From positions 31,666 to 95,665 of the IMG/VR virus record IMGVR_UViG_2814123113_000001: 64,000 nucleotides of DNA, one strand, 5' to 3'. The translations under genes were made by a program, and so were the position numbers. This DNA is from a virus (lineage: Duplodnaviria > Caudoviricetes). Within the stretch, counting starts at the first letter, position 1; each line of letters begins with the position of its first letter. The notes below the pieces were generated by a model. It did not search any database. It saw only the letters and a program-made list of their open reading frames with translations, and was not told the origin of the DNA. Below, piece by piece: positions 1 through 57,480 of this stretch.

Positions 1-122
1 GGTTAGGATACGCCCGTCTGGCACTGGGTCAGGCCGCCCCGCCCATGCCGCCAACAAGCGCTCATCGGCGGTGAGGCCCGGCGGGACCACGACCGGGATC
101 GGTCGAAAGAACTGCACGCTCC

Positions 123-401
123 TCATGGCGCCGACACCAGAGGCGCCAGCGGCAAGAGCCTACCCTCGCGAAAGGCTTCGATCAGACGCTCGGCGAGATC
201 GCACATAGCGTCCTCACCATGCATGGCGACACCCTCATCCCAGGCCTCTCGCACCCGCTCAGCCGCCCGATCCCCAAACCAGATCGCCTGAAGCCGCCTA
301 GACGCGTCGATCCAACGCAGCGCCACGCCATAGTCGACGCCCGCCGCAAGCGCGGCCCCGTAAACCGGGAAGCTGACAGACTTCGGATGGATCACAGCCA
401 A
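123..401 (-). CDS. hypothetical phage protein
   Basis: ORF overlapping the end of the upstream gene in the same operon. Confidence 0.55.
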   Translation of the reverse strand: MAVIHPKSVSFPVYGAALAAGVDYGVALRWIDASRRLQAIWFGDRAAERVREAWDEGVAMHGEDAMCDLAERLIEAFREGRLLPLAPLVSAP

Positions 402-754
402 GCCTCCCCGAGGTTGACCACAGCCACCGGCTTGCCGCCGATCGTGGCGGGCAGAATGATGCTCCGGCCGGTGGCCAGCACGATCCCTTCGACGGCGTCA
501 TGCTCGGCATAGCGCTGCAACTGCCGTTCGATCTTTGCCCGGACCGCGCCATGGACCTTGGCCTCGACAACAAACCGGCCATCAATCAGCCAGTCAGGCC
601 GATCACGCCCGCTTAGGCGATGTTCACGAGAGATCGCTACGCCCGGAAACGCCGCGCGCAGATGCCCGTCGATCGCCAACTGGCAGTCACTTTCGCGCTT
701 GAGGGGAAAACACCCGCGACCGAGCACCCTGGCGACTTCACCGACACTCACCAT
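392..754 (-). CDS. PD-(D/E)xK-like nuclease-fold protein
   Basis: RPDWLIDGRFVVEAK...QLQRY motif. Confidence 0.65.
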   Translation of the reverse strand: MVSVGEVARVLGRGCFPLKRESDCQLAIDGHLRAAFPGVAISREHRLSGRDRPDWLIDGRFVVEAKVHGAVRAKIERQLQRYAEHDAVEGIVLATGRSIILPATIGGKPVAVVNLGEAWL

Positions 755-758
755 GACC

Positions 759-3296: not shown

Positions 3297-5333
3297 GCCA
3301 CCACCCGCACGTCTTCAGCCTGGGGCGGCAGGTTGGCGCGGATGAAGGGTGCAGCGGCGATCGGCGACACGCTGTTGCCGATCAGGCGGGTCTCGTCTGT
3401 CTTGGTGACAGGCTCGACCTTGCCGGTCGCAAAGTCGATCCGCCGATCGGTGCGATACGCCTTCGGAAAGCCTTGCGCCGCCGCCAGCTCGCGCGGCGTC
3501 AGCATCCGCATGCCAATGTCGGCGATCTGCATCAGCTCGCCGCGCACATAGACGAGGCCGAAGCGGGCGCGCGACGTGACGCTGTGGAGCGGGTCGCGAA
3601 GATCCTGCCCCTCGGCGGTGCCGTAGTATTTGACGAGAAACGCGCTCAGGCGATCCGAGATCGGAGCCCCGCCCTCAGCCAGCGGCATTTGCAGCAGATA
3701 GTGATGGTTGCCCCCGGCCGTGATCGTCTTGGCTGGCTGTTCGGGATTGCCTTCACCGCCGGCCGTGTTCGACGTGTAGGCATGAGACAGCATCGCCGTG
3801 ACCAGCCGCTGAGTGCAGCCCTTGCTGACGATGGTCGACACCGGGTCAACCATATCGCGTCCGACCATGTCGGTATTGGCCTGTTCCATGTAGGCCGACA
3901 CTACGCCAAGCGGCACTGCGCCACCGGGCCGCACGTTGAAGCTGCTGGCCGTCACAGTCGGCATCGGATCTTCGAGGCCCGACCCCGTCGCACCCGCGCG
4001 GAACTTGGTGAGGAACTGGGTCACCAGCCCATGGCGCGGCGCGCCATGCCATCACCGTATGCAGTGGCTCGCCAGGATCCTCGCCGATGCTGTTCTCGCT
4101 GAACTTGGTCAGATAGGCCGCCGTCAAACAGCGATCCGCCTTGCCGATCACCGTTCCGAGAGGATCATCCAGTCCGCGCGGCGGACTTTGACCGGCCCGC
4201 GACCCACAACCCACAATCGCCCCGCCCATCAGCGTCGGCTGGACCAGGGCCAGCTCGCCCCGATGCGCGGCCGTCACCGTCCGCAGAGGATCTTGCGGGT
4301 CGTAGACCCGGCCCTCGCCATGATGCGTCAACGGGGTGACGAACGGCCCGGCCGCCATCTCGGGCTGCACCAGGGCAAAAGCGCCGCCGCGCGGATAGGC
4401 CGTGATGGTCCGCAACGGATCGTCGATGTCGTGAACGCGCTCGTGCGACCAGTTCTGGATCGGCACGATGAACGGGTCGCCCGAGGCGATGACGTAGCGC
4501 ATCACCCCCTTGGCGATACGCGCCAAGGTGGCCTCTTCCAACGGCCGCTTGGCCCGGATGCCCCGCTCGCGGCATTCCGCCTGCGTCAGGAAGATCGACG
4601 GGCACGGCAGCGAGAAGTCGATGCAGTCGGCGGCCGGAACATAGGGCTTGAGCCCCTTGCTCTTGGCCACCTTGCGCGGCGCATGCGTCGGCTCAGGCCA
4701 CACGATCGGCTGGCCATCGCGGCGCGCGATCAGGATCAGCCGCTTACGCGTGGTCGGGGCGCCGAAGTCGGCGGCGATCCAATCGACCTTGTACTCGACC
4801 ACATAGCCGCATTGACGCAGCCGCTTGCACCAAAGGCCGAACGTCTCGCCCTTCCGCGCCGGATCGGGCCGCTGGACACCCTTGTCGTCCGGCGGCAGCA
4901 GTGGCCCCCAGTCGACGAACTCTTCGACGTTTTCGAGGAAGATCACGTCGGGCGCGAGATCGCCGAGCAGCTTGGCGACCTTGACCACCACCCAGGCCAG
5001 GCCCCGCACGCGCGGGCTCACAGGCGCGCTGCCCTTAGCCTTGCTGAAATGGCGACAGTCGGGCGAGGCCCAGAAAGACCGCCACTTCACGCCCGGCCGG
5101 ATCACGGTCGGATCAATGTCGAACACGTCGGCGATGAAGTGTTCGGTCTCGGGGCAGTTGAACATGTGGACGCCGATGGCGACCGCGTTGTGGTTCAAGG
5201 CCACATCGGGGTGACGGCCGAGCGCTAGGCGATAGGCCTCAGACGACCCGCCGGCCCCTGCGAAGTAAACCACGTCGATGGGGCGCGCGGGCGCATCGTT
5301 GGCTGGCGCGATATAGGCGGAGCGCTCAGCCAT
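3293..5333 (-). pseudogene. C5 cytosine DNA methyltransferase, split by a +1 frameshift near 4047
   Basis: FAGAGG, SPDC and ENVEE in the upstream ORF; RMLTPRELAAAQGFP and IGNSV in the downstream frame; removing one base near 4047 gives one continuous ORF. Confidence 0.8.
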
Positions 5334-5844
5334 CGGCGCCGACCAGCTCACGCCCCATGGGGCTCAGACGCCATGCAAATCGCCCGGTGTTCAGACGCCG
5401 CGAAACGACGACACCTCGGGTTTCGAGAACGGGCAGAAGCTTGCCGACCTTGTTCCCGCCCACCCGCAACCGTTGCATCAGCTCGGCGACCGCGACGTCG
5501 CGTTGCTTACGACGATCGGACTGATAGTCCTGCTCAGCCTCGTGCAGCACGCTCAGCACGAACTTGCTGACATCGTCCAGATCACGCAGTCGCAGACGTG
5601 GCGCGGAGACGACAGGCGCGACGAAGTCGGGCCGGTAGTCCGGATCGCAGGCCAGACGTACGTCGTGAACCGACCGGCCGACCATTTCGGCGCAAGCCTG
5701 CCAACTGGCGCGCACAGTGCGGCGACGCTCGCGGACCATGTCCATCTCATAGCGTTCGATCCGGGAGCGCGGCAGCACGCCCACATCCGAAAGCGCGCCG
5801 CTAGCCGTTCTCAGCGCCGAAGCGGTATGACCCCCTCGCGACAT
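5326..5844 (-). CDS. putative winged-helix DNA-binding protein
   Basis: VAELMQRLRVGGNKVGKLLPVLETRGVV wHTH-like pattern; coupled to the next gene. Confidence 0.55.
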   Translation of the reverse strand: MSRGGHTASALRTASGALSDVGVLPRSRIERYEMDMVRERRRTVRASWQACAEMVGRSVHDVRLACDPDYRPDFVAPVVSAPRLRLRDLDDVSKFVLSVLHEAEQDYQSDRRKQRDVAVAELMQRLRVGGNKVGKLLPVLETRGVVVSRRLNTGRFAWRLSPMGRELVGADG

Positions 5845-6249
5845 CTAGTCCTCCATCCCCATGCGTTGGCGGCTCGCAGCCGCTTGAGCCGCGCCCTGTT
5901 CGATCAGAAAGTCGGTGAAAGCCTTCGCGTCGGCGGCCAGGCCTGCGGCGAACGCCGTTCGGGTGCTTGCGCCCCCATCGACCCAGAGGCGCGCCCGCTC
6001 CAGAAACGACTTGGCCCAACGGGCGCGGATGTCACCGCGCTCGACCGGGAAGTTGTCACCCGTCAGGCCGCGCAGGCTGTTGGCGAAGTCGTAGGGCGTC
6101 TCGGAAGGCGCATCGAAGGCCTTGAGCGCGTACTCGAACATCGTGATCCACGCTCGCCGATCAGGCGAACGGCGTTCGGGCGTACGCGGCGCCGAGCGAC
6201 GCGGCAGGCCGCTCACATAGCCAGAAGAGCGCGAGGGATAGCGGCTCAT
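5845..6249 (-). CDS. hypothetical phage protein containing two dispersed palindromes
   Basis: ATGA overlap with the upstream gene. Confidence 0.6.
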   Translation of the reverse strand: MSRYPSRSSGYVSGLPRRSAPRTPERRSPDRRAWITMFEYALKAFDAPSETPYDFANSLRGLTGDNFPVERGDIRARWAKSFLERARLWVDGGASTRTAFAAGLAADAKAFTDFLIEQGAAQAAASRQRMGMED

Positions 6250-6701
6250 TCTTTGCCCCCGCCGCTGACCAGCTTTTGCGCAGCGCTCTTGAAGGCGTCG
6301 GCAGCCTCGAGCGCCTCGCGCGCAGCGACTTCACGCGCCAGCCGATCGCCTCCACGCTCAAGAGCATCGAACATCGCGTTGACGGCCTCGTTGCCCTCTC
6401 GGACAGCCGCCTTCATGCTGGCCGCAACTTCGGCGGCGCCGGCCGAGGCCATAGACGCGCGCTCCAGGCGCATGGCGTAAGCGGCTAGCATCGGCGGGTC
6501 TCCGCCACCGGCCGCGATGAACGCGGCATCCAGGCGAACAGCGTCCTCGATCGTCGGCAGGGCGCCAGTATCCGGATCGGACCAGTTGCGCACGGTCCGC
6601 TCGGCCTTTCCGACCGCTTCGGCCGCGACGGGATAGGTGAGAAAGCCGCCGATCGTGGCGACGGCGTCCTGAAAGCTCGCGGGGACGCGACGCTTGGTCA
6701 T
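6246..6701 (-). CDS. CII-like regulatory protein
   Basis: HTH-like AAEAVGKAERTVRNWSDPD; located downstream of cro. Confidence 0.6.
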   Translation of the reverse strand: MTKRRVPASFQDAVATIGGFLTYPVAAEAVGKAERTVRNWSDPDTGALPTIEDAVRLDAAFIAAGGGDPPMLAAYAMRLERASMASAGAAEVAASMKAAVREGNEAVNAMFDALERGGDRLAREVAAREALEAADAFKSAAQKLVSGGGKE

Positions 6702-6898
6702 GCCCAGCTCCGAATGTTGAGGAAGGGGATCGCGCCGCTGGCGAGGCGGATGCCAGCGGCGCGCGCGACGACGGGCAGAAGGTGGGGACCCGTCACGCGA
6801 TGGCGGGGTCGGCGTTGCAAAGCAGCAAGCCGACCGCAAACGACGTGCCCGTCCGGCGCGGCTACAAGCCTGATGGCGCCTACAACCGGAGGGACAAG

Positions 6899-7138
6899 AT
6901 GAATGACCTGACGATCATCAAGGGCCAGATCGAAGCCCTTGCCCACGCCAGCGCAATCCTGTTGGGCGCTCGCATCCGACACCTGACGCCTGGCGAAGCC
7001 GCCACGGCCTGCCGTGTGTTCGCGACCCCGCTGACCGATCCGACACCAGCCGACGATCCGGCCCGGCGCGGCGTCATGCTGGACACGCTGGGCGACATCG
7101 CCGAGCGCGCCCTGATGTTGAGCAGGCCCGTCGGATGA
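6899..7138 (+). CDS. small counter-oriented hypothetical protein
   Basis: GGAGGG RBS before ATG; helical 79-aa ORF. Confidence 0.55.
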   Translation: MNDLTIIKGQIEALAHASAILLGARIRHLTPGEAATACRVFATPLTDPTPADDPARRGVMLDTLGDIAERALMLSRPVG

Positions 7139-7265
7139 CCCAGCGGAAATACAGCGCGAGCGAGTTTGCCACCCACCCGTCAACTCTGGTTCGACGGCAA
7201 TGTGTCGCGGCGTCGCACCATGCAAATTAACGCCCAATTCCACGGCCACGCTGTATGCGGTGGCC

Positions 7266-7481
7266 ATGATCGACGAACCGACTACACGACCGTCCGACGA
7301 GTTTCGCGCCTTGACGATCCTGGCCTTGGCGCTTGCCGAAACTCTTGGCCAGCAAGGCCAGGGCGAGAAGTTCCTGGTGAACCTGATGCGCGTGATCGAA
7401 GACCAGCGCCCGACCGCATCAGCCGACGATCGCGCCATCACCTGGGCAGACAAGCTCGCCACGGAGTTGCTGGTCAGGTAG
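7266..7481 (+). CDS. small counter-oriented hypothetical protein
   Basis: ORF with plausible codon usage. Confidence 0.45.
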   Translation: MIDEPTTRPSDEFRALTILALALAETLGQQGQGEKFLVNLMRVIEDQRPTASADDRAITWADKLATELLVR

Positions 7482-7902
7482 CTCGCGACTTGACCGCGAA
7501 CGCCGGGTATGTAGCATTCGCAACCGCCGGGGGTGTGTATGCCGCGTACGCGTTTCGATGTAGCGAAGATCTGCGACCCGACGCCGGTCGGGACAAGATC
7601 GATGGCGGTAAAGGCCAACTTGGAGGCATCGATCTCGCCCGCGAACGACCCCGTCGACTTCACGAGCGCATACATGGTGCTTGTCGACAGACTGCTCAGC
7701 GACGTAGCCGACAGCGACGCCAGCGAGTGCGCCCGCATCGTTCGAGCCATCACGCGCCGCTCGATCAAAGAAACACCGAAAGGGCGCGCGACGCTGCGAC
7801 GCGCGCCGCATTTGGCGACCGCCGAGGCGGTGTCCAGGCGCGTCTTGAAGGCGCGCTGCGAAGCGTGCCCTCGGATCTGCCAGTCTCCACTGAGATAGGA
7901 CA

Positions 7903-8091
7903 TCAATCCCTCTCAGCCGGAAGCCATGCGCTTGGCGGGATGCCCAGCTCGCGCTCAATCCGAACCGCCAGCTCAAGCGAAGGCGTTCTAGCCCCGCTCA
8001 CGAGCTGAGAAACGTAGCCCTTCGAAATGCCCAGCGACCTCAGCTTCTCGCCAAGATCCTCGCTCGACCGGGTGAGGTTTGCGGTTTCCAT
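7903..8091 (-). CDS. cro: Cro-like XRE HTH regulator
   Basis: LGISKGYVSQLVSGARTPSLELAVRIE; divergent from the repressor. Confidence 0.8.
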   Translation of the reverse strand: METANLTRSSEDLGEKLRSLGISKGYVSQLVSGARTPSLELAVRIERELGIPPSAWLPAERD

Positions 8092-8099
8092 GCCCAAGG

Positions 8100-8185
8100 G
8101 TTTGCATATTGCAAACTCTTTGGCAACCCGCTCGGTTTGCAGACTGCGTGACGACGCGGATGTGCCGTTACGTCAAACTGCGAAC
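8100..8185. promoter_or_regulatory. OR-like operator region of prophage 1
   Basis: GTTTGCATATTGCAAAC at 8100-8116 and GTTTGCAGACTGCGTGA at 8135-8151, between cro and cI. Confidence 0.75.
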
Positions 8186-8506
8186 ATGGAAAGCCCCGAC
8201 AAGCCCCTGCACCATCTTCGCGACTGGCGGAACTACAGAGGCCTTTCGCAAGAGGATCTGGCTGAGCAGATCGGGACGACCAAGTCTGTCATTAGCTTGC
8301 TTGAGACAGGCGAGCGGCAGCTATCGCCCAAGTGGCTTTTCAGGCTGGCTCCAGCCCTGAAAACGAAGCCGGGCGCGATTATCGATCACAACCCTTATGA
8401 ACTCCCCCGCGACGTCATCGACATCTGGCTGGAGATCGATGAGCAGCAGAGGCCTCAGGCCATGAAGGTGCTCGAAACCTTCCGCAAGGTCGCAAGCGGC
8501 AGCTAG
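8186..8506 (+). CDS. cI: CI-like XRE repressor without a peptidase domain
   Basis: LRDWRNYRGLSQEDLAEQIGTTKSVISLLETGERQLS. Confidence 0.8.
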   Translation: MESPDKPLHHLRDWRNYRGLSQEDLAEQIGTTKSVISLLETGERQLSPKWLFRLAPALKTKPGAIIDHNPYELPRDVIDIWLEIDEQQRPQAMKVLETFRKVASGS

Positions 8507-8508
8507 AC

Positions 8509-9291
8509 ATGCTCGGGTTTATCAAGGCGCTATTACGCGGCGAAGCGCATGACGCGCCGCCCCTGACGCCCCCGACCTTCTCAAGTCCGATCGTCCCACC
8601 GGAAGACAGTCCCGCAACTATCCAGCCCGCACCTGGTGATGAAGATCACCCACTTTTCGGTCGAGCCCTGATAATCGACTACATTGATGCTCAGGATGTG
8701 GCGAGTTTTCGCCGCATATCAGTGCGAAACTGCTACGCATCGGGAAACTATTCATATGTCGCTGCGCGATGCCTTGAGCGGCAAGCTCATCGCGTCTTTC
8801 GAATTGATCGGATTGATAGCGTAGCCTGTGGCGTTAGCGGCGAAGACCTCGGAGATCCCGAACGCTTCTTTGTTCCAGCTCCACCCGCGATCGGAAGCCG
8901 CGCCGGGCGCCTTGGTCGCAAACCGCTCCCACATCCAGAGTTGCGAGCTGCCATCAGAGCCTTGATCACGGTCGCAAGAGCCGACGGGTTCATTCACCCC
9001 AGCGAACGGCAAGTTATCCAGTCCTTCCTAAAGGTCGCCGGCGCATCACTTAGCGAAGCAGAGCGAGGCGAAATGCTGCAACGAGCCCTCGGCCTCAACG
9101 CCGATTGTGAAGCGTTCTATCGTAATTTGCGGATTATGTTTCAGGCGGGAGAGCCGCTTGCCAGCACAACGATTGCCGCCATGGGGGATCTCGCTCGAGC
9201 CGACGGCGAAGTGTCGGACGATGAGATGTTCCTCGTCAGCGAGATGATCCGAAAAGGCAAGGAGCACGACTACCGCATAACAATCGAGTAG
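8509..9291 (+). CDS. WYL-domain / TerB-like fusion protein
   Basis: IDYID...RRISV...CLERQAHRVFRIDRI (WYL); ARADG.IHPSE and ARADGEVSDDE (TerB); codon usage less GC-rich than neighbours. Confidence 0.7.
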   Translation: MLGFIKALLRGEAHDAPPLTPPTFSSPIVPPEDSPATIQPAPGDEDHPLFGRALIIDYIDAQDVASFRRISVRNCYASGNYSYVAARCLERQAHRVFRIDRIDSVACGVSGEDLGDPERFFVPAPPAIGSRAGRLGRKPLPHPELRAAIRALITVARADGFIHPSERQVIQSFLKVAGASLSEAERGEMLQRALGLNADCEAFYRNLRIMFQAGEPLASTTIAAMGDLARADGEVSDDEMFLVSEMIRKGKEHDYRITIE

Positions 9292-9311
9292 CGCTTTCCG
9301 CAAACCGTCAG

Positions 9312-9363
9312 GTTCGCAGACTGCAAACTTTTTGTTTGACGCCGACGTTTGCAATATGCAAAC
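9312..9363. promoter_or_regulatory. OL-like operators and early promoter of prophage 1
   Basis: GTTCGCAGACTGCAAAC at 9312-9328 and GTTTGCAATATGCAAAC at 9347-9363, with TTGACG between them. Confidence 0.75.
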
Positions 9364-9475
9364 GCTATGGTCACCCGCACCGGACGAGCGAGCACACGGG
9401 GTGTTCGTCTGGGACTGGAAGGGCGTTGAGAACCGATTTCGGTTCCCGATCGCTCCGGTGCGGTCTGAGGACCAT

Positions 9476-9757
9476 ATGGGAGAGAATGCAACGATCACCG
9501 GCGAGGCCCACGGCCTGGTGCTGGTGGTGGCCGACCGAGGCTTTGTCTGGGTCGGTGAAACGGTCACGACCCCGGACTGGGTCGAGATCAAGAACGCCCG
9601 CTGCGTGCGCCGCTGGGGCACGACCAAGGGCCTGAACCAACTAGCCATCGAGGGACCGCAATCGAGCACTCAGCTCGACGCTCCCGCCGACCTCAAGGTC
9701 AGCCGCAAAGCCCTCATCGCCATCATCCCGTGCGAGGCCGAGAAGTGGGCCGCATAG
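9476..9757 (+). CDS. DUF6948-like small phage protein
   Basis: VVADRGFVWVG...NARCVRRWGTTKGLNQLA.EGP; near-identical paralog at 54793-55062. Confidence 0.75.
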   Translation: MGENATITGEAHGLVLVVADRGFVWVGETVTTPDWVEIKNARCVRRWGTTKGLNQLAIEGPQSSTQLDAPADLKVSRKALIAIIPCEAEKWAA

Positions 9758-10107
9758 CGACCCTCGACGGCCAAGGCGCGGGCACCGCCCGCGCCGACGG
9801 CTACGGCTACGGCGACGGCGACGGCGACGGCTACGGCTACGGCGACGGCGACGGCGACGGCTACGGCTACGGCGACGGCGACGGCTACGGCGACGGCGAC
9901 GGCTACGGCTACGGCTACGGCTACGGCGACGGCGACGGCTACGGCTACGGCTACGGCTACGGCGACGGCGACGGCGACGGCGACGGCTACGGCTACGGCT
10001 ACGGCGACGGCGACGGCGACGGCTACGGCTACGGCGACGGCGACGGCGACGGCGACGGCTACGGCTACGGCTACGGCTACGGCTACGGCTACGGCTACGG
10101 CTGGTGA
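9745..10107 (+). CDS. Gly-Tyr/Gly-Asp repeat protein (GTG start)
   Basis: GAGG upstream of GTG; N-terminus and GW* ending conserved in the second copy. Confidence 0.65.
   Translation: MGRIATLDGQGAGTARADGYGYGDGDGDGYGYGDGDGDGYGYGDGDGYGDGDGYGYGYGYGDGDGYGYGYGYGDGDGDGDGYGYGYGDGDGDGYGYGDGDGDGDGYGYGYGYGYGYGYGW
9799..10098 (+). repeat. 50 tandem hexamers GGC(T/G)AC
   Basis: Read directly; 27 GGCTAC and 23 GGCGAC. Confidence 0.97.
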
Positions 10108-10110
10108 GCC

Positions 10111-10168
10111 GGAGGCCCGGCCAGGGCTCGGCGTAGCCCTACCGCCCTGGCCGGGCCTCCTCTTTTTC
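10111..10168 (+). terminator. 17-bp stem hairpin followed by TCTTTTT
   Basis: GGAGGCCCGGCCAGGGC / GCCCTGGCCGGGCCTCC; identical copy at 55308. Confidence 0.75.
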
Positions 10169-10218
10169 AAACCCTCAGAGAACACATCGCCCCGAGGGCG
10201 ATAGCGCCGAGGTCAATC

Positions 10219-10437
10219 ATGTCTATCCTACTGCAAGGAACGCCGTGGCCCGTGATCGCCGCGCACCTGACTGAGATCGGACTACTGGCGGCGATCTATC
10301 TGCGGGTCCGCATGATCCCGCGCCGCAACCTGCCCGTCATCGTCAACATCGACCCAGTCAGGGCCGGCGAGGCGGCGGCTAAGGAACACCAGATTTTGCG
10401 CCTGGCGCGGGAGATGAAGGGGCCGCGCCGTGCGTAG
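10219..10437 (+). CDS. small membrane protein
   Basis: GAGG RBS; hydrophobic N-terminus. Confidence 0.55.
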   Translation: MSILLQGTPWPVIAAHLTEIGLLAAIYLRVRMIPRRNLPVIVNIDPVRAGEAAAKEHQILRLAREMKGPRRA

Positions 10438-10846
10438 CCCCTTCGAGCAAGGCGACCAGCCAAGACCGTCGCTCAAGACCGAACGCTGTTCGGCTGAGGT
10501 CATCTCCCTCACCGAATGGGCGGCCTCCCGTCGCCGTAGCGAGCCACCGAGCTGGGATCAGCACGCGCTCGACTTGCAACCCTATCAGCGTGACGCCTTG
10601 GCGTGGCTGGAGCGCCAGGACGCGCTGAACGCCAACGACCTTTGGGCTGCGCAAGCCGCGACGGCCTATCTCGGCGACCGCATCGCCATGCCCGCCGCGG
10701 CGATCGAGGCCGCGTTCGACGCGAGGACCGGCCGCTTCGACCTTCCGGCCTATGTGGCCAACACCCTTGATGGCGCGCCGGCCGTCCTGCCACTGCCGCA
10801 ACCCCCTGTCGGCGTGATCACGCGCCTGCTGCGGAGGCTGCATTGA
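10430..10846 (+). CDS. hypothetical phage protein
   Basis: Coupled ORF in the early operon. Confidence 0.55.
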   Translation: MRSPFEQGDQPRPSLKTERCSAEVISLTEWAASRRRSEPPSWDQHALDLQPYQRDALAWLERQDALNANDLWAAQAATAYLGDRIAMPAAAIEAAFDARTGRFDLPAYVANTLDGAPAVLPLPQPPVGVITRLLRRLH

Positions 10847-11133
10847 TGGCCGACGACGCCCAAGCCATGGCCGAGACCGTGCGCTCTGCTTGCGCCCGCC
10901 GCATCCGCGATCTGCTGCAAAAGCGGGTCGGCGCCGGGCGCGAGGATCCTCGCCGCGCGCTGTCGGACCAAGCCAGCATCGCCAACGACTGGAAGGCCGA
11001 CAGCTTCGACCGCCTTCAGCTCGTGCTCGACATCGAAGAGACGTTCGACATCGGCATCAGCGACGAGGAGGCCGAGACGATCGACACGATCGACGCGGCC
11101 GTCACCCGCATCATGTCGGGGGCCTGGACGTGA
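10846..11133 (+). CDS. acyl carrier protein-like protein
   Basis: ADSFDRLQLVLDIEETFDIGISDEEAETIDTIDAAV resembles the ACP consensus ADSLD.VELVM.LEE.F..EI.DEEAEKI.TV. Confidence 0.8.
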   Translation: MADDAQAMAETVRSACARRIRDLLQKRVGAGREDPRRALSDQASIANDWKADSFDRLQLVLDIEETFDIGISDEEAETIDTIDAAVTRIMSGAWT

Positions 11134-11459
11134 ACATCACCGTGATCGTCCCGGAAAAGCGCGACGTGCTGTTCCACCTGACGCCCTTCGCCAAGGGCTG
11201 CGCCAGCGCGGCGGCCAGCGACCGCAAGCGCCGATACCTGGTCACCAGCCGCCGCCCCGGTCAGGCCATTCACGCCCTGCTGACGCGACTAGGGCGCTCG
11301 CCCGACGACGTCGAGATCACGCCCTGCGGCGCGACCGAAACCGCGATCCACCCGATCGGCAACCCCTTTGAGCCCTACGCCTTCGTCTGGGAGGGCCTGA
11401 CCTTCGACGAAGTGGCCACCGCCCTCTCCAACCTTAAAGCCGTAAGGACTGCTCGATGA
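11130..11459 (+). CDS. hypothetical phage protein
   Basis: GTGA overlap with the upstream stop codon. Confidence 0.55.
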   Translation: MNITVIVPEKRDVLFHLTPFAKGCASAAASDRKRRYLVTSRRPGQAIHALLTRLGRSPDDVEITPCGATETAIHPIGNPFEPYAFVWEGLTFDEVATALSNLKAVRTAR

Positions 11460-11647
11460 CGCGCTGGCGCGAAGGCGACGCCGCGCGCGTCGTCGACCTG
11501 ACCGATCTGAAGATGCCCGGCAAGGGACGGCCACCCTTCGCCAAGGACGACATCGTCCGGGTTCGGCGCGTCTCGCCCGACGGCAAGCGTCTGGTTCTGG
11601 ACACACACCCGGGCTGGTTTTCCGCCCATCGCTTCAAGCCGCTCTAG
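11456..11647 (+). CDS. small hypothetical protein
   Basis: AGGA RBS; ATGA overlap. Confidence 0.55.
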   Translation: MTRWREGDAARVVDLTDLKMPGKGRPPFAKDDIVRVRRVSPDGKRLVLDTHPGWFSAHRFKPL

Positions 11648-11655
11648 GAGCACCC

Positions 11656-13896
11656 ATGTCAGCCTTGACCGTCATGGCGTTGGAAAACGCCGACATTCTG
11701 CGCGCCCTTAGGTCATCGAAATTCGAGACCGTCAGCGATCTTGCGCGCACCCTCGAACGCGACCCCAGCAATCTGCGTCGCAGCCTGACACGGATGGCCG
11801 ATGACGGCTTGCTGGCGGTGGCCAATCTGTCGCCGCTGGACGCCAGCCTGACGCTGTCGGCTCAGGCCGCCCTTGAGGCGCTGGACCGTGCCGACGGCGC
11901 CGAGGTCGCCACGACGCCCGCCGGTTATGTCGCCCTGCGTCACGACCAGATCTTGCCCGATCCGGAAAACGCCCGCACCAGCTCGGGCCTGTCGACGTCG
12001 TCCATCTTCGAGATGGCCGACAGCCTCGCCGACCAGGGCATGCTGCAATCGCCCGCCGTACGCCCTGCGGCCGACGGCGCGGGATATGTGCTGGTCATGG
12101 GCGAACGCCGCTGGCGTGGTTGGGGCCTGTTGATCGAACAGGGCCGGTGGACAGCGGACAAGACGATCCTCTGCCGCCTCGACGATGGCGACGATCTGGC
12201 GCGGCTTGAGGCCGGTCTGGTCGAGAACCTCCAACGATCCGACCTGAACAATCTGGAAGCCGCCGAAGGCTTCCTGACGCTGTCGATCCGCCACAAGCGC
12301 ACCGCGCAGCAGATTGCCAAGACGGTCGGCTGGAACGAGCGGACGGTGCAGATCGCGCTCAAGGTCGCCAAGGAAGCCACCGACGCCGACAAGCAGAAGT
12401 ACCTCGAAAGCGAGGCCGCCTATGCGCTCGCCAAGGAAACCGGCGAGGCGGGCGTCAAGCGCACCTTCACCTGGGAAGACCTTCGCGAGACCGTGAAGAC
12501 GCCCAAATGGCGCCAGGTGCTGGACAAGCGCAGCCGCGTCTCGCTGCTCGTCATGGAACTGGCCTTCAAGCAGCTCAGCGACTGTGACGGCCCCGATGGG
12601 CTGACGCGCATCTCGGTTCCGCCCGGCGGCGGCTTCTGGTCCGAGGCCGAGGATCTTGGCCTGGTCAAGGACATGCGCGTCGATCAGGCCGTGTTCGCAG
12701 GCGTGACCGACCGCGCCCGGGAATGGCTGGCCGACAACCAGTTCGACGCCGACCCCGGCGCGGCGCTCAAGACGCTGCGCATCGACGCCCTGGGCTCAAT
12801 GGGCGAGCGGCTGGCGTCGGACGCGGGCCGCTACGCCACCGACTTCATCAACCCGCCCAAGCCGCAACCGCCAGCGCCCGAACCCAGCCCGGAGCCGCCA
12901 ACTCAGGCCTCCGACGATCGCCGCGACAGCTTCACCCGGCAGGTTCTCGCGGTCGCCGGTGATGACGCTGGAGATAGCCACGAGACCGCGCCGACGATCG
13001 ACGCGGCCGCAATGGCTTATGGCGCGGCCATTGAAGAGCACGGGGCCTCTTCGCCCGAGGCCGTCGCAGGCCTGGAGGATCTGCGAGCCGCACGCGCCGC
13101 AAACAACGCGCCCTCCGCTCAAGACCCCAGCGCCCTCTACGCAGCCCTCGGCGGCAAGGTAGCCGCTCCAGCCAGCGAGGCGACGAGCGCCGTTCGCGAC
13201 GAGGCGAACAATCCGGGCAACCTGGAGGACGACGAGTTTCTGGCCATCGCAGAGATCGCCCACAAGACCACGTTCGACGGCGTTGATACGCGCGGCGGCG
13301 CGATCCGTGGGTGCCGCGTCTTCTCGTTTCACACCGGCCCGGGCGCGGAACTGGCCAGCCGCCTCCAGCACAAGCGCATGCTGGGCTTTGGCCAGGCCGC
13401 CAGCGGATCGGGCTTTATCGCCTATCTGACGCAGGACGCCTGGAACCTGATCGGCGAGGTTGACGACGAACGCCTCGAGGGCATGCGGCACGAGACGCTC
13501 GACACCGGCGACCTGACCGCGTTCGAGGCCTCGGGCGCCAAGTACGTGACGCCCTGGCTGGTCGATCCGGTGAAGACTGAGGAACCGGCGGCGCCCGACG
13601 CCGCAGACTCTGACGACGGCTCACCCTTCGCCGAAGACGAGGACGACGACGGCGAGGAAATGGACCATCATTGGTTCGACGCCGCCGCGCACCTGGGCGG
13701 CCGATGGGACTACCTGCTCGCCCTCCAGATGACCGCGCCGGCCCCGGCCGGGCTGGACGCCCCGTTCTACATCTCCGCCAAGAGCGAGGGCGAGGGCATG
13801 GTCGTCGGCGAAACCCTCGCCGGATCGGGACGCTTCAGCGACGTCAGGCTCTACCGCCGTAGCGGCAAGCTGCTGCTGCATTGGGGCGTCGCATGA
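11656..13896 (+). CDS. ParB/KorB-like protein with extra N-terminal HTH and long C-terminal extension
   Basis: PENAR, GMLQSPAVRP, GERRWRG, LVENLQRSDLN, central HTH TAQQIAKTVGWNERTVQ; N-terminal HTH VSDLARTLERDPSNLRRSL. Confidence 0.85.
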   Translation: MSALTVMALENADILRALRSSKFETVSDLARTLERDPSNLRRSLTRMADDGLLAVANLSPLDASLTLSAQAALEALDRADGAEVATTPAGYVALRHDQILPDPENARTSSGLSTSSIFEMADSLADQGMLQSPAVRPAADGAGYVLVMGERRWRGWGLLIEQGRWTADKTILCRLDDGDDLARLEAGLVENLQRSDLNNLEAAEGFLTLSIRHKRTAQQIAKTVGWNERTVQIALKVAKEATDADKQKYLESEAAYALAKETGEAGVKRTFTWEDLRETVKTPKWRQVLDKRSRVSLLVMELAFKQLSDCDGPDGLTRISVPPGGGFWSEAEDLGLVKDMRVDQAVFAGVTDRAREWLADNQFDADPGAALKTLRIDALGSMGERLASDAGRYATDFINPPKPQPPAPEPSPEPPTQASDDRRDSFTRQVLAVAGDDAGDSHETAPTIDAAAMAYGAAIEEHGASSPEAVAGLEDLRAARAANNAPSAQDPSALYAALGGKVAAPASEATSAVRDEANNPGNLEDDEFLAIAEIAHKTTFDGVDTRGGAIRGCRVFSFHTGPGAELASRLQHKRMLGFGQAASGSGFIAYLTQDAWNLIGEVDDERLEGMRHETLDTGDLTAFEASGAKYVTPWLVDPVKTEEPAAPDAADSDDGSPFAEDEDDDGEEMDHHWFDAAAHLGGRWDYLLALQMTAPAPAGLDAPFYISAKSEGEGMVVGETLAGSGRFSDVRLYRRSGKLLLHWGVA

Positions 13897-14297
13897 CCGC
13901 CGCCGAGCTGATGGCCCGCGCCATCGCCGAAGCGGTTTGGAATCGCGTCGACGCCATGAAGCGCGGGACCTTGGGGCCTCGCCAGATGTTGAGCTGGGAA
14001 ACGGCGGGCGAACAAGCTCGGGCCAACTGGACGGCGATCGGCGAGCATGCGCTCGCCGAGATCCGCGCGGCGCGGCTCAGCGATGACAGCGTCATTCGGA
14101 TGAGCCTCGCGCAATCGATCTTCGGGTTGATGCGCAAGGCGATGCTGGCCAGCCCGGCGGGACTTCCTCGTTACGCGGCCACCACGTGGTCGGACGCCCA
14201 TCCCGACGAGCGCGCCGACTACTTTGCGATCGCCGGCGCGGCGATGCAGACGGTGCGCGCCGCCAAGGCGCAAGCCCAGCAGGCGAGGGCGGCATGA
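13893..14297 (+). CDS. hypothetical phage protein
   Basis: ATGA overlap. Confidence 0.6.
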   Translation: MTAAELMARAIAEAVWNRVDAMKRGTLGPRQMLSWETAGEQARANWTAIGEHALAEIRAARLSDDSVIRMSLAQSIFGLMRKAMLASPAGLPRYAATTWSDAHPDERADYFAIAGAAMQTVRAAKAQAQQARAA

Positions 14298-14533
14298 CCC
14301 AACGCCCGCTAACCCTGGCCGACGTCATCGCCTACCACGTCGCCGAGGCCGAGAACTACACCGCCAAGGCCACAGGCTGGGCACGCTCGGCCGAGCTGCT
14401 CAAGACCGGCCACAGCGTCACGAACGCCGTTCGTATCGACCGGTTTGACGCCGCCGCCCAGCTCGCCGCCGACATCGCCGCGAAGCACGGCGAGATGGCC
14501 GACCTTCTCGAAACTCAGAGCACCCGGTCATGA
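14294..14533 (+). CDS. hypothetical phage protein
   Basis: ATGA overlap; GAGG RBS. Confidence 0.6.
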   Translation: MTQRPLTLADVIAYHVAEAENYTAKATGWARSAELLKTGHSVTNAVRIDRFDAAAQLAADIAAKHGEMADLLETQSTRS

Positions 14534-14665
14534 AGCGTTGGCCTCGCCTGATCGGCTGGACCCTCGCCGCCGCCGCCTCAGCCGCCGCCATGGCACGCGC
14601 TCACCGCGCTCTTCCGAACTTTCTCCGGCCGCCAAGGCTGAACCTGAAAACCTTAGGAGACCTTG

Positions 14666-15487
14666 ATGCCCGACATCATGCTCGATCTGGAGACGCTCGG
14701 CACGACGCCGGGCTGCGTGATCCGATCCATCGGAGCCGTCGCTTTCGACCCGAACGGCGGACCGTTGGGCGAGAGCCTCTACCTGATCATCGACCGCACC
14801 TCTTGCGAGGCCGCCGGCTTGACGGTCGATCCCGAGACCGAGGCCTGGTGGGCGGAGCAAACGCCCGAGGCGCGCGCCGAGTTCGACGGGCAAGGCGTTG
14901 CGTTGGCCGAGGCGCTGGACGCCTTTGAACTGTTCTACACGACCCTCGCGCCGATCGCCGACAAGGCCGACCGCCTGTGGAGCAACGGCCCCAGTTTCGA
15001 CGAGGCCATCCTGGCCGCCGCCTATCGGTCGCTCGGCCGCAAGCCGCCGTGGCGCTATAACGCCGCCCGAGACTGCCGCACGATCTACGATCTCGCCGGC
15101 CTTAAGCTCCAGCACACCGGCGGCACTTTTCACAAGGCGATCGACGACGCCATTGAGCAGGCGAAGCTGGTTCAGGAGGCGCGGCGCCTGCTCATCGCGG
15201 CGGGTCCGCCGGCGTGGCGCACCGAGGTCAATACCTTTGCGAACCTCATGGAACAGCAGCTCCGCGCGAACGACCACAAGGGCGGATGGAAGGGCGATAC
15301 CAGTGACGCTCTTTACCAGCGTCTGCTGGAAGAGGCCGAGGAGCTGTCTCAAGCTCTAGCATGGCGCTCAGCTCTGTTCGGCGATGCAGACCCCGAGAGA
15401 ATTGGCCGCGAGGCCGCCGACGTCGCCAACTTCGCCATGATGATCGCCGACGTGCGCGGCGCGCTGGGGACGGAGGCGCGGCCGTGA
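14666..15487 (+). CDS. DEDD 3'-5' exonuclease fused to MazG-like nucleotide pyrophosphatase domain
   Basis: IMLDLETLG, WSNGPSFD, HKAIDDA; C-terminal LLEEAEEL...EAADVANFAMMI. Confidence 0.8.
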   Translation: MPDIMLDLETLGTTPGCVIRSIGAVAFDPNGGPLGESLYLIIDRTSCEAAGLTVDPETEAWWAEQTPEARAEFDGQGVALAEALDAFELFYTTLAPIADKADRLWSNGPSFDEAILAAAYRSLGRKPPWRYNAARDCRTIYDLAGLKLQHTGGTFHKAIDDAIEQAKLVQEARRLLIAAGPPAWRTEVNTFANLMEQQLRANDHKGGWKGDTSDALYQRLLEEAEELSQALAWRSALFGDADPERIGREAADVANFAMMIADVRGALGTEARP

Positions 15488-16047
15488 AGGATTTCACCCC
15501 CACCAAGGAAACCATCAGCCTTCACGGGCTAGGGTTCATCCAGCTCATCCTGGGCGGGAACCAACGGCTGCACGTCTGGCATCCGGATCTACCACGCCGC
15601 GATTGCTATGAGCACTCAGCGATCCACAATCACCGCTTCGGCTTCGTATCACGCGTCCTGAAGGGCACTCAGGTCAATCAGCGCGTCGACCTGGAGATTG
15701 TGAAGCCGGAGACAGGCTCGCACGTCCTGATCAGCCACAACGGCCCGCGTAGCGACAAGGGCGGGCGGCTTAGCTACCCGGTCGCCGACGTCAACGTCAG
15801 CCCCCGCGCGCCCGAGTTCTACGAGGCGGGCGCCGAGTACGTCATGCCGCCCATGGAATACCACCAAACGCCATGCGAAGGCGTTGTGGTCACGCTCATG
15901 CAGAAGACCGTGGAGACGTCGTTACACGCTAACAGCGTCTGCCGTCGCGGTGTCGATTTCCACTACGACTTCGACCGCTTCCAGCTCTCGCCGAGCGAGC
16001 TTTTCGCCTACGTGGTCGACGCGCTGGGATCGGAGGTGCGCCCGTGA
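15484..16047 (+). CDS. His-rich cupin-like phage protein
   Basis: RLHVWHP, IHNHRF, EYHQT. Confidence 0.55.
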   Translation: MKDFTPTKETISLHGLGFIQLILGGNQRLHVWHPDLPRRDCYEHSAIHNHRFGFVSRVLKGTQVNQRVDLEIVKPETGSHVLISHNGPRSDKGGRLSYPVADVNVSPRAPEFYEAGAEYVMPPMEYHQTPCEGVVVTLMQKTVETSLHANSVCRRGVDFHYDFDRFQLSPSELFAYVVDALGSEVRP

Positions 16048-16298
16048 CCCCGAAGCCGCAGCCGCCGAACGACAAGCACGAGGCCCTGTATCAGGAACTC
16101 GTCGCCGTCATGCGCAAGTACGAGCTTTCGCAGGTAGAGATCCTTGCGGTCGTCGCCAACATCACCGGCAAGTGCTTGGCCTTTCAGGACCAGACCAAGG
16201 GCACGGCCGACGACTACATGCAGATCGTCATCGCCAACCTTGAAGAAGGCAATCGCCAGGCACTCGACGGACTGCTCAACCCGATCGGGAGGGCGTGA
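16044..16298 (+). CDS. hypothetical phage protein
   Basis: GGAGG RBS; GTGA overlap. Confidence 0.6.
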   Translation: MTPKPQPPNDKHEALYQELVAVMRKYELSQVEILAVVANITGKCLAFQDQTKGTADDYMQIVIANLEEGNRQALDGLLNPIGRA

Positions 16299-17215
16299 TG
16301 AGCAAAAAGTACGCTCACGACCTAGCGAGGATCGACGAAGCCCTCTCGCCGCATGTCTGCAAAGCTCGCAACGCCCGCGCCTTTGACTTCCGCACCCCAG
16401 GCAAGGGCGGAACCTACGCTTTCAGTCTGACCTGGACCCCGGGTTCGCTATCCCTGGCCGGCGACTGCGGCGAGCTGACCATGACGCACTACTCGGCGCT
16501 TTGGACGCTCGAGGAAGGGCTTCGTTGGGCGGCTACCAGCGACATCCACTACTTGCTCGGCAAGACGCGCCTTAAAGAGACTTTCGACCGCGACGCCACC
16601 ATCCGCGACATTATCAAGATGGCCAACGAGGGCGCGGTAGACTCGCGCAAGCGCCTGCGGGATGAGCTGCGTGGGTGGCGGCGAGAGCGGCCCGACCCCT
16701 ACGGCTGGTATGATCCCGCGACAGAGTTTGACTACGTCGACTGGCTGAACGATCGACCGACTCAAAACTCCGTCTGGACGACCTATGTGCGGGCGCAATC
16801 TCGGTACGAGTACAAGGACCAGGAAGAGCGCGTCGTGGTCGCCGATGGGTGGGAGCTGTGGAACGACATCCGTCGGGGCTTGGGAGAACGGGATGTCGCC
16901 TGCATTCACACGTCCAAGGGTCTAGAACATCTGACCGAGCTGCTGCAAAACGAGATAGAGACAGAGCATCATGCCTACGAATTTTGCTACGGCAAACTCG
17001 GCTGGGATGACTATCACCCCTGCTACGCGTGGCGCTTTCACGACCTGCTCCAGGTCGAGTGCATTCGGCGCGGCGCGAAGATGGCTCTTGAGCAGTTGGA
17101 CGCCGACCCGCCCTTCATCCCTTACGCTTGGCGCCCCGCCCTAGCCGACGATATGGCCGCGTTCCCCCGTGCCTTCGGTGAACGCTACAGCTCCGTACTA
17201 GCGAGGGCAGCATGA
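16295..17215 (+). CDS. hypothetical phage protein
   Basis: Long coupled ORF. Confidence 0.65.
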   Translation: MMSKKYAHDLARIDEALSPHVCKARNARAFDFRTPGKGGTYAFSLTWTPGSLSLAGDCGELTMTHYSALWTLEEGLRWAATSDIHYLLGKTRLKETFDRDATIRDIIKMANEGAVDSRKRLRDELRGWRRERPDPYGWYDPATEFDYVDWLNDRPTQNSVWTTYVRAQSRYEYKDQEERVVVADGWELWNDIRRGLGERDVACIHTSKGLEHLTELLQNEIETEHHAYEFCYGKLGWDDYHPCYAWRFHDLLQVECIRRGAKMALEQLDADPPFIPYAWRPALADDMAAFPRAFGERYSSVLARAA

Positions 17216-17282
17216 CCCGCGAAGCCCTTCTGGCGCGCATACGCGCACTCGCACACCGCCCCGCGCTGCCGAGCGACGGCAA

Positions 17283-17723
17283 ATGACACCTCAACCCCTA
17301 CCCACCGTCGCCTTGTCGATCCTTCAGCCGTGGGCCTGGCTCATCGTCAACGGCTACAAGGACATCGAGAACCGCACCTGGCGGACGCATCGGCGCGGGC
17401 CGATCCTGGTCCACACCGGCAAGGGCTTTGACAGCGATGCTCACCAGGACATGCTCCAGGGCGTCCACCCCTGCTACGACCTTGGCCATCTGAAGGCGGA
17501 CGTTCATGACGCCTACCGCCTCGCTTGGGAAGCCGGCGAAATCCATCGCGGCGGAATAGTCGGCGGATGCAGGATCACCGGCTGCGTCACGGATCACCCG
17601 AGCTGGTGGTTCGCAGGCCCGTTCGGTTTCACACTCGCCGATCAGATGCCCCTGCCGTTCATGCCCCTCAGCGGCGCGCGCGGGTTCTTCCCGGCGACCT
17701 ACATTCCACCGGCGAACTGCTAA
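17283..17723 (+). CDS. ASCH-domain protein
   Basis: ALSILQPWAWLIVNGYKDIENRTW. Confidence 0.85.
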   Translation: MTPQPLPTVALSILQPWAWLIVNGYKDIENRTWRTHRRGPILVHTGKGFDSDAHQDMLQGVHPCYDLGHLKADVHDAYRLAWEAGEIHRGGIVGGCRITGCVTDHPSWWFAGPFGFTLADQMPLPFMPLSGARGFFPATYIPPANC

Positions 17724-17875
17724 TGGCCGCCGCGCGCCAGCACCAGGACCCTCAGCGCACGCCGCAAGGCGCAGCGCTCGACCCTGCGTTGGTGCGCCTA
17801 ATCGAAGCCCTTGCCCAGGCCGATGCAGATCGCGACTATGCCGCCGCTCAGCAGCGCAGGGAGACCCAAGGATGA
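17723..17875 (+). CDS. conserved ~50-aa protein (candidate RDF)
   Basis: LDPALVRLIEALAQADADRDY; homolog at 61933-62082. Confidence 0.6.
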   Translation: MAAARQHQDPQRTPQGAALDPALVRLIEALAQADADRDYAAAQQRRETQG

Positions 17876-18126
17876 GCGGTGGCAGCGCAGACATTCGGGT
17901 CAGCGACATCGTATCGCGCTGCGGCGACGACAGGCTGCGCGTGGTCGGCACAAACGGCAGCGACAGCCTACCCCCCGACCTTGTCGAAACCGTCTGCATC
18001 GACGCAGGCAAGGGCTGGGGCGGCTTCATCGTGGGCAGGAAGGATTTCCTTTGCGCCGACGACGTCGAGCTGATCGAACGGCCCGCCCGCGATCCCGAGG
18101 CAATCGCACTTCCCGCGCACACCTAG
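17872..18126 (+). CDS. hypothetical phage protein
   Basis: ATGA overlap. Confidence 0.5.
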   Translation: MSGGSADIRVSDIVSRCGDDRLRVVGTNGSDSLPPDLVETVCIDAGKGWGGFIVGRKDFLCADDVELIERPARDPEAIALPAHT

Positions 18127-18130
18127 CTCA

Positions 18131-54586: not shown

Positions 54587-54673
54587 GCCTACGCCCTCGT
54601 TTGTTTCTTCACGCGTTGCGCGCATCTGACCAGTCGCGCGCCTTAAGGAACAGCGATCGTTCCGTTTCATTAA

Positions 54674-54722
54674 ACGATTTTGTTTCGTTGGATCGTTGAC
54701 ATTGCCAACGAAACGGTTTCGT
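54674..54722. promoter_or_regulatory. OL-like operators and early promoter of prophage 2
   Basis: ACGATTTTGTTTCGT, TTGACA at 54696, perfect ACGAAACGGTTTCGT at 54708-54722. Confidence 0.75.
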
Positions 54723-55304: not shown

Positions 55305-55307
55305 GCC

Positions 55308-57478: not shown

Positions 57479-57480
57479 CC

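Follow-up and report, generated by a model that had tools for sequence, protein, structure and literature searches.

A 64,000-nucleotide stretch of viral DNA (Duplodnaviria; Caudoviricetes; positions 31,666 to 95,665 of IMG/VR record IMGVR_UViG_2814123113_000001), hereafter the window, carries two copies (A and B) of a small gene of the DUF6948 family followed by a long array of two near-identical hexamers. Comparing these arrays with their relatives showed that they lie in a predicted translated, hypervariable gene for a microprotein in which glycine alternates with a second residue (Gly-X), and that this gene is paired with the DUF6948 gene. The interpretation we favour, with a probability of about 0.6, is a two-gene module closed by a terminator, whose products would form an early Sm-like scaffold with disordered Tyr/Asp tails.

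Coding frame and relatives of the array

Array A (9799-10098, + strand) comprises exactly 50 hexamers in the Gly-X register, 27 GGCTAC and 23 GGCGAC, with no third unit, and is followed by GGC TGG TGA (Gly-Trp-stop; 10099-10107). Tandem Repeats Finder reports it at 9797-10102, with a period of 6, 51 copies, 94% matches and a score of 451. The repeat part uses only the codons GGC, TAC and GAC, and its alternating Tyr and Asp runs have lengths of 2,3,2,3,2,2,1,2,4,2,4,4,3,3,2,4,7. An earlier note, made from the letters of this DNA, had described the 50 units, the runs and the Gly-Trp-stop end, and the unit count bears this out. The predicted gene around the array (9745-10107, + strand) encodes 120 aa: an 18-aa leader (MGRIATLDGQGAGTARAD), 50 Gly-Tyr/Gly-Asp units and Gly-Trp before the stop. 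The computed isoelectric point (pI) of the protein is 4.05, and its charge is -23.5. The end of the array also contains GCTGGTGA, presumably a near-match to the E. coli Chi sequence, which we regard as a by-product of the Gly-Trp-stop codons.

The two hexamers differ by a single T/G toggle, as the note had observed. However, this toggle is silent in two other frames that are open through the array (Ala-Thr on the + strand and Ala-Val on the - strand), so the window alone cannot settle the coding frame and we compared relatives. Scanning viral contigs for six consecutive GGCKAC units, a DNA pattern that makes only GGCKAC arrays visible, gave at least 119 stretches. Among the pattern matches listed, the arrays are part of open reading frames (ORFs) that are read as Gly-X, have short leaders with a Met and stop a few codons past the array. 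A protein search (5.8 billion proteins) returned 499 matches at E <= 1e-3 among 8000 scored candidates. A further search for longer Gly-X forms returned 792 matches, and 115 of the best 120 had the layout leader-(GX)n-C-terminal domain in the Gly-X frame. The ORF is annotated as a coding sequence (CDS) in several cultured phages, including Rhodobacter phage RcapNL (gp46), Rheinheimera phage Barba (gp017) and Pectobacterium phage Ymer; it is called 'lamprin' in MW202613 and 'fibroin heavy chain-like protein' in Ralstonia phage NK-7. In Iodobacter phage PhiPLPE (L138, around 1170-1430), a Gly-X ORF (..NKNGDGSGYGDGYG..) lies in an unannotated 272-nt gap between gp84, which is DUF6948-like, and gp83.

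The leader before the array is also recognisable across relatives. It reads IATLDG / VATLDG in the window, QTLDG in MW202613 and LTLDG in six further loci (L020, L021, L050, L053, L080 and L109), while bacterial loci carry TTLDG, FLTLDG or HLTLDG; other leader classes (MFRPV, MTLDDK...) are also present. The Gly-Trp end recurs in the closer relatives of the window. We rejected the + Ala-Thr and - Ala-Val frames because neither shows the conservation of leaders, ends and domain fusions that is seen in the Gly-X frame. The comparison shows Gly-X to be the predicted coding frame of the array. An array with neither translation nor a conserved frame, N-terminus or Gly-Trp end across homologues had been named beforehand as the mark of a neutral minisatellite; instead, the frame and the '..TLDG' leader proved to be conserved, as did the Gly-Trp end in close relatives.

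A neutral, non-coding minisatellite in the 3' untranslated region of the DUF6948 gene would also be a perfect tandem repeat that breaks assemblies and varies freely in length, as this array does. However, the residue set is restricted, length changes are all multiples of 6, domains are fused in frame, and the pairing described below holds across 38-79% DUF6948 identity. Given the conserved Gly-X frame, leader and end, together with the annotated CDSs, we reject this neutral reading as extremely unlikely.

The commonest domain C-terminal to the arrays (90 of the 120 best longer matches; e.g. L047:3919-4383) has about 155 aa and the consensus ..IDGV.T.I.SV.GN...FAHGETL.EA...WHH.LTGSC.MGR..F. Its model has a predicted local distance difference test (pLDDT) score of 94.4 and no convincing fold match: the best Foldseek hit has an E of 0.25, and the best VIA hit (Z 6.3 over 64 residues) covers an EF-hand-like helical part. 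The arrays are also fused to DUF7666, to TIGR02996 and to a second unnamed family, rarer than the ~155-aa one, and none of these domains gives a functional clue. Searching the fused domains by sequence against solved structures returned nothing useful.

Other databases were similarly uninformative about the Gly-X proteins. In Pfam, only the low-complexity family TrAA12 matched, at or just above its cut-off and for few repeat proteins. In NCBIfam, apart from TIGR02996 on one protein, there were far-sub-threshold matches to serine-rich and MSCRAMM low-complexity models. The Gly-X proteins and fused domains hit only 'unknown function' families in PHROGs and nothing in PADLOC, and an ESM Atlas search returned only unnamed clusters, mostly viral. 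In one viral contig (L015:1935-2933), a DUF6948 gene is followed about 720 nt further on by five tandem paralogous Gly-X genes (leader MSDDPDPRLLLWPLLF... in each).

Pairing and junction of the two genes

In the window, the DUF6948 domain match ends 44 nt before the array in both copies. We built a DUF6948 hidden Markov model (HMM) from 75 sequences and ran it on six-frame translations of the pattern-found loci. Among the pattern matches listed that have at least 450 nt of upstream sequence, 70/107 arrays (67/97 loci) have a same-strand DUF6948 gene ending -30 to 400 nt upstream; a DUF6948 gene just downstream of the array was found in only 5 of these 107. For the reverse test, a protein-pattern scan of viral contigs yielded 324 candidate DUF6948 loci, 297 of which were confirmed, and we took the best (closest) 80 of the 297. 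All 72 of these with at least 300 nt of downstream sequence contain a same-strand run of at least six Gly-X units, beginning within 150 nt in 71. Pairing is also found in bacterial genomes (9/11 testable loci, the closest in Caulobacteraceae), and persists across 38-79% DUF6948 identity. The comparison shows the two predicted genes to be an almost obligate ordered pair across many phages.

Three single-chain proteins combine DUF6948 and (GX)n, in both orders. However, none of 150 DUF6948 representatives carries a fused array, indicating that the split pair is the rule. The earlier suggestion that a low-complexity polypeptide acts with a DUF6948-like partner thus gains support from the conserved frame, the near-obligate pairing and these rare fusions.

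The junction between the two genes has a recurrent geometry. Among the 70 pattern matches listed with a junction, the Gly-X gene is in the -1 frame relative to DUF6948 in 58, in the +1 frame in 12 and in the same frame in none. Counting back from the DUF6948 stop, the first start codon of the Gly-X ORF is reached after 10, 13 or 16 nt in 45/70, with -10 as the commonest offset (20/70). Copy A in the window is of the -1 type, with a 13-nt overlap. Its GTG at 9745 has a GAGG 8 nt upstream and the TAG at 9755 10 nt downstream; the first G closes a Lys codon, and the TG opens the Trp codon that is almost invariant at the C-terminus of DUF6948. The note had proposed a GTG start, and the GTG at 9730 is indeed in frame; we nevertheless place the start at 9745, because the annotated ATG of MW202613 is at the homologous position, -10 is the commonest offset, and the GAGG lies upstream. 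This Trp codon thus serves twice in the window (9745-9748) and its relatives, since together with an A or G before it, it supplies the ATG or GTG of the Gly-X gene; each gene may in this way limit how the other can vary. Translation of the two genes may be coupled through the overlap.

Alternatively, the Gly-X part might be made as a C-terminal extension of DUF6948 through -1 ribosomal frameshifting, instead of or besides separate initiation. The 58 junctions in the -1 frame with a short overlap are what frameshifting would need, and P0115 is a natural single chain of the form DUF6948-(GX)n. However, a start codon is present at the conserved place in all 70 listed junctions, and the 12 junctions in the +1 frame do not fit a -1 shift. 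In RcapNL and Barba, moreover, the Gly-X ORF is in frame after the stop and has its own ATG. We found no X XXY YYZ slippery heptamer in the 13-nt overlap of the window, and the absence of fused arrays from the 150 DUF6948 representatives also argues against frameshifting, which we consider very unlikely.

Hypervariability and codon usage of the array

How fast the array changes can be seen in Rheinheimera phage Barba, for which we compared 10 of 115 isolates, chosen for their differing coordinates or lengths rather than at random. Across these near-identical isolates, the flanking genes barely vary, with 0-1 differences over the 315 nt of the DUF6948 gene and none over the 210 nt of the gene that comes next. 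The Gly-X gene between them occurs in five alleles, with lengths of 210, 216 and 252 nt, distinguished by the number of complete 6-nt units and by exchanges between Tyr and Asn that alter the first base of the codon. The rapid variation that had been predicted for the array is thus directly visible in these alleles. The Barba genomics paper (PMC6715854) contains no passage on gp017, gp018, indels, tandem repeats, hypervariability or glycine.

In the lineage of the window, the arrays have 50, 32, 28, 48 (plus two GGCGGC units) and 27 units. The order of Tyr and Asp between related arrays, including A and B, is no more alike than between shuffled strings, indicating that composition is conserved and order is not; like units are clustered in array A only (runs z -2.54). 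The idea that the array serves as an identity barcode finds no support in this shuffle-level order. Together, these comparisons show a predicted gene that evolves much more rapidly than the sequences on either side, through in-frame gain and loss of 6-nt units and substitutions at the first position of X codons.

This variability does not extend to synonymous positions. Between lineages related to the window, 16-31% of the conserved codons of the DUF6948 gene differ synonymously (5% for L005 vs L006), but arrays A, B, L005, L006 and L007 have zero synonymous variants. The same codon lock is found in Barba gp017, at a locus with 38% GC, where 58/58 codons are of these types (GGC 29/29, TAC 16/16, AAC 8/8 and GAC 5/5). 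In the Barba flanking genes, the corresponding usage is 9/71 for Gly (13%), 21/54 for Tyr (39%), 21/67 for Asn (31%) and 24/94 for Asp (26%), so the lock is not simply driven by GC content. It is also not absolute: GGA occurs in L011, and the codons GGA, GGT and TAT are all present in the Barba31A allele. Unit slippage, homogenisation and selection for fast codons may together explain the lock. In the closest bacterial relative (L230, a Caulobacteraceae metagenome-assembled genome (MAG), 83% identity), Gly-Gly and Gly-Val units occur amid the Gly-Tyr and Gly-Asp units, which means that the second base of the X codon varies there too.

The lock raises the question of whether the array also, or mainly, acts as DNA or RNA: as a recombination or slippage hotspot, as a structured or protein-bound RNA, or through a link to G34/queuosine tRNAs, which decode NAC codons. 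The complete lack of synonymous variants next to a gene with 16-31%, and the lock of Barba gp017 at 38% GC, both speak for such a role. However, concerted evolution through unit slippage and fast-codon selection would give the same picture, L011 and Barba31A depart from the lock, and the leader, the fusions and the residue set are conserved at the protein level. We consider a role as nucleic acid unlikely. Mutagenesis of the diversity-generating retroelement (DGR) type is not supported by what was seen: the variation consists of T/G changes at one position and of unit indels, and is not adenine-specific, and no reverse transcriptase was found among the 30 of 61 window ORFs that were scanned against PHROGs.

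The DUF6948 partner

The DUF6948 gene of copy A (9476-9757, + strand; 93 aa) has a GAGG 5 nt before its ATG and matches Pfam PF22253 with an E of 2.6e-9, as had been anticipated for this small gene. Copies A and B score 37.5 and 35.4 bits against a cut-off of 27, and cover positions 4-83 and 13-83, respectively, of the 85 positions of the model. The family is large: in a library of 1.84 billion proteins, it accounts for 990 representative clusters at E <= 1e-3.

An AlphaFold2 (AF2) model made from the 75-sequence alignment has a pLDDT of 91.1. In a VIA search with this model, the top hit has a Z of 8.1 (root-mean-square deviation 2.8, 66 aligned residues), a Z in the range that the tool calls common, and the top ~35 rows are nearly all Sm, LSm or Hfq proteins, or else subunits of other complexes that have an LSm domain or the Sm fold. 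Foldseek gives a similar picture: the best hit is 3by7 (E 0.018, template modelling score 0.52-0.59), and nearly all hits are Sm/LSm proteins, with a few otherwise-named proteins of the Sm fold. A viral structure library returned DUF6948 proteins from diverse phages, with weaker matches labelled 'Sm-like'. Searching the 75-member profile against solved structures by sequence found no Sm or Hfq chain, and the best hit (E 0.29) was unrelated. The predicted structure is consistent with an Sm/LSm-like beta-barrel, and we call DUF6948 Sm-like in fold only, because a sequence signature of Sm or Hfq was not found.

The most conserved residues (R45, W47, G48, T49, G52 and L53) lie in the loop-helix between strands 3 and 4 of the model, and we know of no Sm counterpart of this RxWGTxxGL loop. 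Five proteins (P0122, P0123, P0131, P0134 and P0150) have two tandem DUF6948 domains in one chain of 180-250 aa.

The terminator-like hairpin

Three bases past the Gly-X stop codon, a hairpin begins (10111-10168, + strand) with a 17-bp stem (10111-10160) followed by TCTTTTTC. The 101-nt segment around it (10085-10185) folds at -58.4 kcal/mol (z -5.06), which was matched by 0/200 shuffles, in agreement with the hairpin that the earlier note had placed after the array. With its G+C-rich stem-loop and U-run, it is a predicted intrinsic terminator. The stem is preserved between the window, L005 and L007 despite two-sided changes at 6 stem pairs (7/19 predicted pairs when one in a small inner helix is included), and L232 has a different hairpin sequence at the equivalent position. 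Homology between copies A and B ends at 10173, and public contigs diverge at 10166.

The position of the hairpin recalls attenuation of the pyrBI type, in which the position of the ribosome controls read-through of a terminator. The array ORF could, by analogy, be a regulatory leader peptide that senses translation speed or tRNA supply, with the ribosome at the stop codon melting the terminator and allowing read-through into the early genes. In the window, L005-L007, L230 and L231, the stop codon does lie 3 nt before a strong, conserved terminator, the window array contains only three codons, and the cassette is the first unit of its operon. However, similar hairpins follow just 28/111 stand-alone Gly-X ORFs, against 17/105 control segments, and we rejected the terminator as a general feature of the family. 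Many arrays are also fused to globular domains, and distant relatives keep the composition and leader with other codons and residues. In the fold of 10085-10185 we found only a small, separate upstream hairpin and the terminator, with no competing antiterminator pairing, and a leader of 50 units far exceeds what a sensor needs. These points argue against the terminator-coupled sensor of translation speed that the note had listed among the possible roles, and we regard this explanation as highly doubtful.

Genomic context of the two cassettes

The second full cassette, overlooked in the first reading of the window, lies at 54793-55365, at a distance of 45 kb from copy A within one provirus record. 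It consists of a DUF6948 gene (54793-55062, + strand; 89 aa; PF22253 E 1.2e-8), a Gly-X gene (55050-55304, + strand; 84 aa) with the same type of leader, 32 units, Gly-Trp and stop, and a hairpin (55308-55365, + strand) identical to that of copy A. Array B (55104-55295, + strand) contains 18 GGCTAC and 14 GGCGAC. The two copies are about 92% identical from around codon 8 of DUF6948 to base 10173, just beyond the U-run; the sequences upstream of this are unrelated.

The window contains a tandem of two prophage modules that are related to each other (1-19777 and 20000-64000). Each has a rightward operon that opens with the cassette and goes on to small ORFs, a ParB-like gene (11656-13896; 57249-59639) and a large serine recombinase gene (18131-19777; 62378-64000). 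The PHROGs scan also placed tail, head and terminase genes at 21.4-46 kb (- strand) and primase genes at 47.2-50.0 kb. Copy A is preceded by a helix-turn-helix (HTH) gene and a WYL-TerB gene, and copy B by a CI-like HTH/S24 gene; the cassette is likewise beside regulator genes in RcapNL and MW202613. The ORF just upstream of cassette A (8509-9291) combines WYL and TerB domains (Pfam; PADLOC WYL models), an unusual pairing beside an HTH gene in an immunity region.

Putative operator-like inverted repeats lie upstream of cassette A (9312-9364; CGTTTGCA-N3-TGCAAACG and a 17-nt pair), and putative operator-like palindromes of unlike sequence lie upstream of cassette B (54672-54727). The repeats upstream of cassette A may have a regulatory role. 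The earlier proposal of a repressor-controlled early promoter is plausible given the palindromes at both copies and the neighbouring regulator genes, although a consensus scan upstream of the cassettes found no sigma-70 promoter.

Public contigs match 9300-9782 and 10110-10166 and diverge on both sides, leaving the array itself uncovered; this divergence indicates that the cassette is a mosaic unit ending at the terminator. Short-read contigs from three studies (X1, X5, X8 and X10) all end at the array (9783-10109), and such arrays are therefore likely to be under-represented or truncated in metagenome assemblies.

A proposed scaffold with variable tails

In the module that we favour, the gene overlap would lead to translationally coupled co-expression of DUF6948 and the Gly-X protein, and the Gly-X leader would dock the microprotein on a DUF6948 oligomer. 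The product would be an Sm-like scaffold with long, disordered, acidic and Tyr-rich tails, in which composition rather than sequence matters. As an accessory factor, it may act early, expressed from a putative promoter that lies next to the immunity region and is under operator control. It could be a multivalent scaffold or mimic related to nucleic acids, for example with an RNA-chaperone-like activity, as a seed for condensates, or as a decoy for host nucleic-acid-binding proteins. Amyloid formation, which the note had listed beside condensates and a decoy against defence, is a further possible role. In the lineage of the window, the terminator would end this self-contained unit.

Several observations weigh against this interpretation. 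Firstly, the pairing has exceptions: no array was found within 1.5 kb of DUF6948 in L012 and L013, or within 1.2 kb in the bacterial loci L239 and L242 (2/11 testable), and 30/97 listed pattern loci have no DUF6948 match to the HMM. Sampling was also biased, as the pattern set contains only GGCKAC arrays and the protein-found set is the closest 80 of 297. Secondly, the Sm-like match of DUF6948 is only middling in strength, and a Pfam scan found no Sm or Hfq family at E <= 0.01. Finally, an acidic tail fits direct RNA binding poorly, and a model based on protein alone leaves the codon lock unexplained.

A bolder version, which we consider rather unlikely, is that DUF6948 and Gly-X form an unrecognised but widespread organelle-like or decoy system. 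Here, an Sm-like ring with detachable Tyr/Asp tails would act early, either as a tyrosine-driven condensate or as a polyanionic mimic that soaks up host RNA- or DNA-binding proteins of defence or RNA metabolism. In this version, an arms race would underlie the variability of the array, and synthesis of the tails would depend, through the codon lock, on the state of G34/queuosine tRNAs.

Comparison with known systems

Proteins of the Sm fold with repetitive or acidic tails are known: eukaryotic SmD1 and SmD3 carry Gly-Arg repeat tails, and Hfq has an acidic C-terminal tail. The phage module is similar in combining a small Sm-type barrel (by fold match) with a Gly-X or acidic disordered tail, including rare single-chain forms. 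However, the phage tail is usually a separate gene product and is rich in Tyr/Asp(/Ser/Asn) rather than Arg, and no Sm or Hfq sequence motif or Pfam match was found for DUF6948.

In plant glycine-rich RNA-binding proteins, a Gly-rich region lies beside an RNA-binding fold. For hnRNPA2, one study describes an 'F/YGG motif', in which the tyrosines of a Tyr/Gly-rich low-complexity domain mediate nucleic-acid binding and phase separation (PMC9067507). The phage pair resembles such proteins, by composition only, in placing a Gly/Tyr-rich disordered region beside an RNA-binding-type fold; unlike them, the phage arrays are strict dipeptide repeats, acidic and without Arg. Silk fibroin and lamprin share the alternating Gly-X pattern, and automatic annotation has used their names in two phage records. 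However, there is no homology or secretion signal, the phage proteins are small and predicted to be cytoplasmic, and X is Tyr/Asp rather than Ala/Ser.

Other parallels concern the DNA. The C9orf72 GGGGCC repeat gives rise to the poly-GA, -GP and -GR dipeptide-repeat proteins, and is likewise a 6-nt repeat translated into dipeptide repeats of variable length; in contrast, the phage ORF has a start codon, a leader and one selected frame, and is not a case of pathological repeat-associated translation. Bacterial contingency-type loci contain in-frame variable-number tandem repeats, which resemble the phage array in their rapid in-frame unit gain and loss between identical flanks. However, length changes never switch the phage gene off, and the repeat makes up the whole protein instead of a spacer in a surface protein. 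Phage morons are self-contained units, and lambda has the early layout pL-N-tL1. The cassette is similar in being a mosaic block that ends at an intrinsic-type terminator and comes first after the operator region by the immunity genes, although the consensus scan found no promoter, and its genes resemble neither N nor any known moron gene.

Aromatic residues are heavily under-represented in the low-complexity regions of prokaryotes and phages, and Tyr-rich regions are rare, according to one survey (PMC6821194). In the literature searched, which did not extend to subscription journals, we found no description of the module, of DUF6948, of DUF7666 or of such phage repeats. The parts are already in databases as DUFs or hypothetical proteins; we came across no account there or in that literature of how the two genes are paired, of their overlapping start, of the hypervariability or of the codon lock.

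Such arrays break short-read assemblies and mislead annotation pipelines. If our reading is correct, strict Gly-X dipeptide-repeat microproteins are an entire class of phage proteins that has gone unnoticed, carrying uninformative or misleading names ('hypothetical', 'lamprin' or 'fibroin-like') or no annotation at all. The module spans temperate and virulent phages, with hosts from Caulobacteraceae to Rheinheimera, Pectobacterium and Rhodobacter, and is distinctive in combining extreme in-frame hypervariability, a GC-independent codon lock and a fixed overlapping-start architecture. It would also sit among the early genes, the usual place of anti-defence and host-takeover factors.

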